Source of the DNA: a virus
Lineage: Duplodnaviria > Heunggongvirae > Uroviricota > Caudoviricetes
Virus record (IMG/VR): IMGVR_UViG_2917886563_000003
Strand: one strand, 5' to 3'
Length of the DNA stretch: 6,487 nt
The notes under the pieces were generated by a model. That model searched no databases, was not told where the DNA came from, and saw only the letters and a list, made by a program, of their open reading frames with translations. This document shows positions 1 through 1,429 of this stretch, piece after piece; position 1 is the stretch's first letter; each line of letters opens with the position of its first letter. The position numbers were made by a program, and so were the translations under genes.

Positions 1-2
1 TG

Positions 3-353
3 GGAAGCACGGGGAAACCGGCTAATTTACTGTATCACTCGGATCAAGGCAGTCACTATACCAGCAGGAATTTCAGACAGTTACTGTGGAGATATCAGAT
101 AAAGCAAAGCCTGAGTCGCCGGGGAAATTGCTGGGATAACAGCCCAATGGAACGGTTCTTCAGAAGCCTGAAAACAGAGTGGGTACCGGATAATGGCTAC
201 GCGAATTTTAGCGAAGCCAGCACGGCAATAACGAATTACATCACAGGATATTACAGCCAGCTCAGACCTCATCAATATAATGGTGGTTTGACGCCGAATG
301 AATCAGAACGATTGTTCTGGAAAAACTCTAAAGCTGTGGCCAGTTTTTGTTGA
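3..353 (+). CDS. IS3-family transposase OrfB (DDE integrase catalytic domain), C-terminal part; 5' end lies outside the window
   Basis: Translation from base 3 reads [62 protein letters not shown]...[24 protein letters not shown]. The [10 protein letters not shown] and [19 protein letters not shown] blocks are the conserved D and E regions of IS3-group OrfB. The ORF track lists only 147..353 because it starts at the first Met, but the frame is open to the window edge. Confidence 0.88.
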
Positions 354-361
354 CCACTACA
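326..361. repeat. Putative right terminal inverted repeat of the IS911-like element
   Basis: Terminal sequence ...ctgtggccagtttttgttgaccactaca ends in CA and is similar to the IS911 end as recalled. The left end is not in the window, so the inverted-repeat pairing cannot be verified. Confidence 0.5.
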
Positions 362-370
362 CTCGATCAG

Positions 371-1429
371 ATGAAAGATGTACGGGAGAAGGCTACTAAA
401 TCTTATGATGAGGCTGAATATGTAGTTGATAAGAAAACTGGTAAAGGAGAATGGAAGGGCGGCGATAGCGGCATCAATACTTTAATGAATGAAGGATTCC
501 TAACTAAAAAGGATCTAAAAGACTTTGCTGATAATCCGGCTGGTCTGGTTAGTAAAGCAGTTCAGGGAATGGTAGCTAAAGGCTATTCAGATGCACAAAT
601 CGGTAGTCGTCTGGAAGATCTGGCTGATGATTTGATGCTCACCTCTAAATACTGGACACGCTCCGCTAAAGAAGTGGAACAATCAGCACGAGAACAACGA
701 GAATCAGGGCGCTGGGTAACGCAGGCACAACAGGAAAGCGTTATTAAATTCCGTGAACTGAATAATGCACTTAGTGGGCTTTCTGACTCACAAGGGATCG
801 CCTTTGTTGATGGCTTTATGAAATCTCTTGATCCGAAAGTGATTGAAGAGTTTAAAAAGAGCATGGTTGCAATGCTGCCAATGTTTACCAAATTAGGCGA
901 GGCTGTAGGCGGTCTACTTAATGCGATCATGAAAACTATCAACTGGTTGATGAAAAACGACGAGAAGACGGCAGCTATTCAGAAGAATTTAGGGGATGCA
1001 CCGCCACTATCTAACGAAGGAATGAAACAGAATCTTTCTAATCTCACTCCTGATCAATATAAAGGCGCTGGCACCGGAACAATTAAGCCAGATAACAGCA
1101 ATTCCCTGGTTAACACTATTAAAAGCTGGTTTATGCCAGAAGAAACGGTAGGTGGGGCGCAGGCTGTAAATCAATACAGTCTCGAAGGACAAAACATTGC
1201 AAATCTGAAACAGAGTGCAGCACAACAAGCTCTCAAGGCTCCTTCTTACACCTTTGCACCTGTTATTCACTTCAATCCAGAATTACAAGTAAATGCAGAA
1301 GTGCCGCTAACTATCGAATCAGACACCGGACGATTGAGCGAATTTATCGACTTCAAATCAAAGGCATCCTCCGCTGAGTTTAGCAAGCTATTAACGCTGG
1401 GTGTTATGTCAGGCGGGTCAACCTATTAA
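371..1429 (+). CDS. Hypothetical protein, probably a 5'-truncated gene fragment interrupted by the IS; possibly the C-terminal part of a phage tail tape-measure-like protein (weak)
   Basis: Long open frame ending TAA at 1427-1429. The frame is open back to 332, right through the IS terminus; the first ATG is at 371 with no recognisable Shine-Dalgarno upstream. The protein is rich in K/E/Q/A with likely helical stretches (e.g. LGEAVGGLLNAIMKTINWLMKN) and no catalytic motif I can name. The track's start at 347 is a TTG alternative. Confidence 0.6.
   Translation: MKDVREKATKSYDEAEYVVDKKTGKGEWKGGDSGINTLMNEGFLTKKDLKDFADNPAGLVSKAVQGMVAKGYSDAQIGSRLEDLADDLMLTSKYWTRSAKEVEQSAREQRESGRWVTQAQQESVIKFRELNNALSGLSDSQGIAFVDGFMKSLDPKVIEEFKKSMVAMLPMFTKLGEAVGGLLNAIMKTINWLMKNDEKTAAIQKNLGDAPPLSNEGMKQNLSNLTPDQYKGAGTGTIKPDNSNSLVNTIKSWFMPEETVGGAQAVNQYSLEGQNIANLKQSAAQQALKAPSYTFAPVIHFNPELQVNAEVPLTIESDTGRLSEFIDFKSKASSAEFSKLLTLGVMSGGSTY

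Follow-up and report, generated by a model that had tools for sequence, protein, structure and literature searches.

A single 1256-bp IS911-like insertion sequence (IS) has, with high probability, transposed into a tape-measure-like gene of 613 codons, at codon 259, on the leuX element of Escherichia sp. E4736, and the DNA described here begins inside that insertion. This window, by which we mean the whole 6487-bp stretch that was analysed, matches the entire 6487-bp contig PDHX01000035.1 of that strain (GCA_004745245.1) over its full span at 99.985% identity, and exact protein look-ups lead to the same source (Escherichia sp. E4736, unclassified Escherichia). A second E4736 assembly (GCA_005781225.1) covers window positions 344–6185 on contig VATT01000059.1 (5841 bp). 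Each contig breaks off within IS sequence on either side, and the two ends of the window fall in two different IS3-family elements, as expected of short-read assemblies, which are interrupted by repeats.

The left end of the window (positions 1–361, plus strand) is the right-hand 361 bp of an IS911-like member of the IS3 family, identified from Pfam domains, identity to annotated copies and a full copy in another genome. Positions 3–353, with the stop codon TGA at 351–353, encode the C-terminus of the transposase OrfB, and their translation is a DDE transposase matching PF00665 (rve), PF13683 (rve_3) and PF13333 (rve_2), all above the curated cut-offs. Over positions 1–361 the window shares 99.7% identity with the right end of an element that many E. 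coli genomes carry under the annotation ‘IS3 family transposase, programmed frameshift’. The full copy in E. coli H8 (L012:1607-2862) is 1256 bp long with TG...CA ends, beginning TGTAGTGGCATAGTGAATTTGGCCACC and finishing GTTGACCACTACA; the programmed frameshift (orfA/orfB) is annotated in this 99.7%-identical copy, where an A6G motif lies at about L012:1936-1945, and the window holds the last 361 bp only. In the window, the right inverted repeat terminates ...GTTGACCACTACA at position 361, in keeping with the TG...CA type, while the left end of the IS, TGTAGTGGCATAG..., is present both in the H8 locus and in L013, the E4736 locus that carries the other side of the insertion. Because the full copy runs TG...CA over 1256 bp, the IS terminus can be placed at window position 361, and the 361/362 boundary is fixed by E. 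coli genomes in which the match begins exactly at 362 and gene sequence continues upstream.

IS911 (IS3 family, IS3 group) is known from Shigella dysenteriae and from the E. coli K-12 copies IS911A and IS911B; elements of this type duplicate 3 bp at the target and move by a copy-out/paste-in mechanism via a circular intermediate. The E4736-type element resembles IS911 in size (1256 bp, from the H8 copy, versus ~1250 bp), in its DDE/rve domain, TG...CA ends and 3-bp duplication, and its left inverted repeat is near-identical to that of K-12 IS911B over 40 nt; the H8 copy is annotated as having two transposase ORFs linked by a programmed frameshift, as in IS911. However, the nucleotide identity to K-12 IS911B fragments is only 70–77%, and ISfinder practice asks for more than ~95% nucleotide identity for two copies to bear the same IS name. 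The element is thus best regarded as a different IS of IS911's group, for which ‘IS911-like’ is the correct name and ‘IS911’ itself is not.

The gene sequence that begins at 362 is the 3' part of a longer gene. A preliminary description, made from the letters of the window alone, had taken position 371 as the start of a hypothetical gene ending at 1429, and noted that its reading frame stays open through the IS terminus back to 332 and that the first ATG lacks a ribosome-binding site. Both observations hold: a TAA lies at 329–331 with the frame open from 332 onwards, and no Shine–Dalgarno-like purine run precedes ATG371 (TTGACCACTACACTCGATCAG-ATG) or TTG347. Only 10 IS-derived codons lie ahead of the gene sequence in this open frame, and we estimate that a run of 10 codons would be open by chance ~60% of the time, so that the open frame alone is weak evidence. 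The intact homologues are more telling. In every locus examined (L001–L009) they are 1842 or 1845 nt long (613 or 614 aa), the intact gene occurs in at least 179 complete E. coli genomes, and the window protein read from 362 matches residues 259–613 of WP_024219364.1 with 352/355 identities (99%). Because the window protein aligns to residues 259–613 of the intact homologues, ATG371 is internal Met262 rather than a natural start, and upstream of the position equivalent to 362 the intact E. coli genomes are coding (...GGTAAACGTAAGTAT CTC GATCAG ATG AAA...). The feature present in the window is accordingly read, from these alignments, as a gene remnant at 362–1429 (plus strand; codons 259–613 plus the stop) and not as a gene beginning at 371. 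The 352-aa and 360-aa remnant proteins had no record in exact protein look-ups; the gene caller had used the contig-end form. Near the IS/gene junction no promoter-like site was found, including a hybrid outward promoter at the IS end.

The missing half of the gene is present in the same strain. When the first 259 residues of an intact copy were used as a homology query and cluster members were then listed, TLI93711.1 (P0106) emerged, a partial Escherichia sp. E4736 protein of 266 aa whose gene closes the 112.6-kb contig VATT01000016.1 (L013:10001-10798). The C-terminus of this protein reads ...GDQGRRKYL-CSGIVNL, and the DNA of the contig ends ...AAGTATCTC followed by TGTAGTGGCATAGTAAATTTG, which are the gene through codon 259 and then the left inverted repeat of the IS. 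The left junction in E4736 therefore reads ...AAGTAT CTC/TGTAGTGG..., codons 1–259 running into the left end of the IS, and the right junction in the window reads ...CCACTACA/CTCGATCAG, that is, ...CCACTACA/CTC GATCAG. The uninterrupted E. coli target, AAGTATCTCGATCAG, has a single CTC (AAGTAT CTC GATCAG). The CTC found on both sides of the IS in E4736 is a 3-bp target duplication, whose right-hand copy (codon 259, Leu) occupies window positions 362–364, as the left junction, the intact target and the reconstruction agree. In support of this, the H8 copy of the same IS is likewise flanked by a 3-bp duplication (GAA). The right junction is identical in the second E4736 assembly (VATT01000059.1).

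When the IS and one CTC are removed and L013:10001-10777 is joined to window 365–1429, the result is a 1842-nt, 613-codon ORF with a terminal stop only, which is 97.4% identical to WP_024219364.1 without gaps. On the larger scale, joining the contigs yields 12,966 bp that are collinear, at 95.9% identity, with the intact element in E. coli CE0021a. The two junctions, the CTC repeated at them, the ORF restored by joining and the homology can all be read directly in this way, and they bear out the core of the preliminary description: that an IS split a longer gene whose 5' part lies past the other IS end, with an N-terminal portion and a target duplication to be sought to the left of the IS (both were found, as TLI93711.1 and CTC), and with full-length homologues, here of 613–614 aa, that have no natural start at Met371. 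Its ‘IS911-like’ label has also stood, for a real 1256-bp IS3-family element; its placing of the insertion at the 5' end of the gene has not, since the insertion point lies mid-gene, after codon 259 of 613, 42% into the gene. The earlier observation is thus confirmed, and the interpretation built on it is supported as essentially right. None of a collection of complete E. coli genomes has the IS/gene junction, and an exact search with a 32-nt junction sequence gave 0 matches among GTDB species representatives; E4736 is not a representative genome. The predicted N-terminal fusions (259 aa plus CSGIVN or CSGIVNLAT, in three E. coli variants) are not on record, because the E4736 N-terminus differs by ~3%.

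The identity of the disrupted gene comes from profile homology and gene order. The full-length protein matches PHROG 16051, ‘tail length tape measure protein’ (residues 154–611 to profile positions 224–656 of 660, E = 1.7e-30), and the remnant alone matches positions 319–656 of the same profile (E = 1.9e-25); a Pfam search of the protein gave no family match. The tblastn matches of the remnant protein are almost all to tape-measure genes of ~145–150-kb rV5-like myoviruses (Phapecoctavirus, Justusliebigvirus and relatives), at ~30% identity. Directly downstream of the remnant lies an intact Dit-like baseplate/tail gene (1477–2154, plus strand, 225 aa; PF21821 Dit_like, E = 2.4e-27; PHROG 817), which is probably in one operon with the disrupted gene and whose product is 48% identical to gp127 (238 aa) of Justusliebigvirus PHB05. 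In PHB05 the tape measure gene (gp126, 660 aa) follows the sheath, tube and chaperone genes, and gp127 is directly next. Because PHB05 has the same gene pair, 362–1429 and 1477–2154 are best read as a tape-measure plus distal-tail module. The protein of the disrupted gene thus resembles rV5-like tape measure proteins in its length, its profile homology, the Dit-like gene next to it and a Gly/Ala-rich hydrophobic segment in its N-terminal half; it differs in being encoded on a 12.8-kb integrated element. Upstream of the gene are a 65-aa ORF and a capsid-like gene, and no sheath, tube, tail-chaperone, portal or terminase homologues were found among the called genes of the element (PHROGs, Pfam).

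The IS entered with its transposase co-directional with the disrupted gene, duplicating CTC and leaving two gene fragments, and we assume that it transposed by the mechanism established for IS911. The N-terminal fragment would consist of 259 residues followed by IS-encoded residues, seven of which (CSGIVNL) are visible before the contig end; nine would be expected before a stop if the IS in E4736 is like the copy in E. coli. The C-terminal fragment is the 355-codon remnant at 362–1429, which has neither a promoter-like site nor a ribosome-binding site of its own. Since the gene is split into two fragments, the C-terminal one lacking start signals, we infer that neither is functional and that the gene has been inactivated. 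The Dit-like gene downstream probably suffers polarity from the insertion as well, given the likely common operon. The insertion appears to be simple, and to be the sole gross lesion of the element in E4736, the rest being collinear with intact copies.

Several other histories could produce a broken gene beside an IS. Some small probability attaches to more than one IS lying between the two halves, either as a tandem pair or as a composite transposon with cargo between two direct copies, which would be expected to give the same junctions and duplication. The E4736 contigs show the terminal 361 bp of the IS on the right and 21 bp on the left; its unassembled interior is taken from copies in other genomes. 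Positive evidence for a second copy is nonetheless lacking, and in E. coli genomes this IS commonly inserts as a single copy, at a median of one place per genome; we infer that exactly one complete IS lies between the contigs. Marginally less probable again is that the gene was broken by an IS-mediated rearrangement (deletion, inversion or recombination between two IS copies) that left its halves no longer adjacent. The contigs do end within a repeated IS, and the adjacency of the halves comes without a direct assembled read-through; but the two breakpoints coincide to the nucleotide within the gene, with the same 3-bp duplication and no gene sequence lost, whereas recombination between unrelated IS copies would yield different flanks. 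Moreover, the left part of the element lies complete on the 5' contig, with leuX/attL, and the right part lies in the window with attR.

We give next to no weight to an assembly chimera at the IS/gene junction: short-read draft contigs can mis-join at repeats, but here the same right junction occurs in two separately deposited assemblies and the complementary left junction was found independently. Equally improbable is a natural, complete gene of 352/360 aa that happens to adjoin the IS, the open frame being a coincidence. An open extension of 10 codons into the IS could easily arise by chance, but all intact homologues are 613–614 aa, Met371 aligns with an internal methionine, the remnant covers only the C-terminal half of the PHROG profile, and codons 1–259 are present in the same strain at the other end of the IS; the homologue alignment and the left flank have already refuted this possibility. 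Transposition of a single IS911-like copy into an intact gene remains by far the most probable account.

The disrupted gene belongs to a 12.8-kb element that is integrated at leuX in E4736 and is fully present, at leuX or at a thrW/yagP site, in at least 179 of 5426 complete E. coli genomes. Its right boundary lies in the window. A tyrosine integrase of 423 aa is encoded at 2235–3506 on the minus strand (Pfam Phage_integrase and DUF6538; PHROG 1), an identical 423-aa integrase adjoins attR in intact elements, and attR itself (3628–3669, plus strand) is a 42-nt copy of the 3' end of the leuX tRNA-Leu(CAA) gene followed by the native leuX terminator, as found in an alignment that took in E4736 attL/leuX and K-12 leuX. 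The attR copy is one G short relative to functional leuX (CTTCGCACCA versus CTTCGGCACCA). ARAGORN found no complete tRNA in the window and placed the complete leuX tRNA-Leu(CAA) at L013:1178-1262; an Rfam scan of the window and L013 detected leuX only. Copies at the other site (L001 and L002) adjoin yagP/paoD, in distinction to the leuX type represented by L003 and the window, and their similarity to the window stops at about 2777–2789, inside the integrase gene. The structural module is common to both sites, with the integrase and att specificity swapped. The cryptic prophage CP4-6 of K-12 was considered as a relative, since some copies adjoin yagP/paoD, and was rejected: K-12 has intF, yagN and yagM, and another gene order.

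The gene called helicase-like in the preliminary description, at 3975–6167 on the plus strand, is, from its PADLOC match and E. coli annotation, the 5' part (~731 of 1171 codons) of yjhR, the MkoC helicase-nuclease gene of the type II Mokosh anti-phage defence system; the fragment matches the MkoC profile over positions 1–711 of 1136 (E = 1e-249), and its match to annotated E. coli yjhR, whose cluster members are 1171 aa, ends at 6167. There it is truncated by the left end of an IS2-like IS3-family element (6167–6487, plus strand, boundary good to ~2 nt; orfA from 6231), which is 95–98% identical to annotated IS3-family transposase copies beginning at window positions 6164–6166. The remark in that description that both outward-facing genes are IS-disrupted is therefore true, but it partly reflects how repeated IS copies delimited the contig. 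Some E. coli genomes (e.g. H61–H64) have leuX directly abutting yjhR without an island, an empty site.

The element also codes for a DNA invertase, for a 189-aa winged-helix protein that has weak Rep-O-like matches and for several small orphan proteins; PADLOC found no matches among the element's proteins. The gene in the capsid position occurs in two forms, of 343 aa (L013:8586-9617) and 342 aa (L002:5807-6835), that are 20% identical over their full length. The 342-aa variant matches Pfam Phage_cap_E (3.6e-18), whereas the 343-aa form falls below threshold there and has a weak PHROG 29 match only; tblastn of the 343-aa protein against 50,697 phage records gave no match, and a PDB sequence search gave only a faint match to Phi92_gp124 (E = 0.014 over 23 residues). 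A stretch of ~1 kb (L013:7002-7985) upstream of the capsid-like gene block has 32–36% GC, no annotated gene, no Rfam match and ORFs of at most 57 aa. Iteron-like direct repeats, five copies of 23 nt that each contain an internal palindrome (ACCCnnACAGAAnnnTGTTAnCC), are found at L013:3437-3574 and L003:4618-4752, within a 1.76-kb AT-rich stretch that has no ORFs of 50 aa or more, and are conserved between E4736 and E. coli CE0021a; this stretch is probably the replication origin of the element. In other strains we observed a ~1.26-kb insert within the Dit-like gene (L005:11559-12819), an IS1A in the tape-measure/Dit region of strain cM8a (H7/H65) and an IS3-family element truncating the integrase in EC13 (L004:15155-16383). 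The element has been struck by IS repeatedly, in independent insertions.

Three or four element genes have homologues in rV5-like phages, and one link is close at the DNA level. A 355-bp stretch (L003:6257-6611, about L013:5062-5416), which spans upstream signals and the first 105 codons of the gene for the 189-aa winged-helix (Rep-O-like) protein, is 99.2% identical to gp053 of the lytic Phapecoctavirus Mt1B1_P17 and 94.7% identical to phage BI-EHEC, and phage muut has adjacent homologues of the element's adjacent 56-aa and 189-aa genes. Such identity suggests that the element and virulent rV5-like phages have recently exchanged DNA. The iteron motif had no match within the 8-kb region of phage Mt1B1_P17 that was examined.

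This raises the possibility, which we put forward tentatively and hold to be rather unlikely, that the element represents an undescribed family of phage satellites exploiting lytic rV5-like myoviruses (Stephanstirmvirinae), which would make it an E. coli counterpart of the Vibrio PLE-ICP1 pair. The suggestion draws on an iteron origin of its own, on a Rep-like protein whose N-terminal DNA-binding domain is encoded by DNA 99% identical to a Phapecoctavirus gene, and on the divergent capsid-E-like gene and the tape-measure and Dit homologues, for which the closest phage relatives found are rV5-like phages. The element has integration and replication functions (integrase, DNA invertase, Rep-O-like winged-helix protein and iterons), and its genes do not make up a full virion or packaging set, with no terminase, portal, sheath or tube by PHROGs and Pfam. 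It resembles described phage satellites (P4, PICI/cf-PICI, PLE, PICMI) in its size of ~13 kb, its tRNA-site integrase, its few structural-gene homologues, its own Rep-like winged-helix protein and iterons, and its use of two att sites with a different integrase at each. It differs from them in that no hallmark genes of any described family were found: there was no primase/helicase, AlpA or PADLOC match, and, unlike cf-PICI, the element is without a full head module. A literature search on satellites of Phapecoctavirus, rV5-like phages and Stephanstirmvirinae found nothing relevant. The Tai tail-assembly-inhibition systems, to the extent that they are set out in the available portion of their description (PMC11364771), have no apparent relation to the element.

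Inactivation of a mobile-element gene by an IS3-family insertion with a textbook 3-bp duplication is routine decay and a known phenomenon, and the present case offers a clean worked example of joining two draft contigs across an IS. The host element is common in E. coli, and this wider context could matter more than the insertion itself. rV5-like phages are used in phage therapy cocktails, and if the element proved to be a satellite or interference element for these phages, host-range prediction would be affected. Were the satellite reading true, the element would provide a second model of satellites of virulent myoviruses, and the IS insertion in E4736 would have disabled a satellite.
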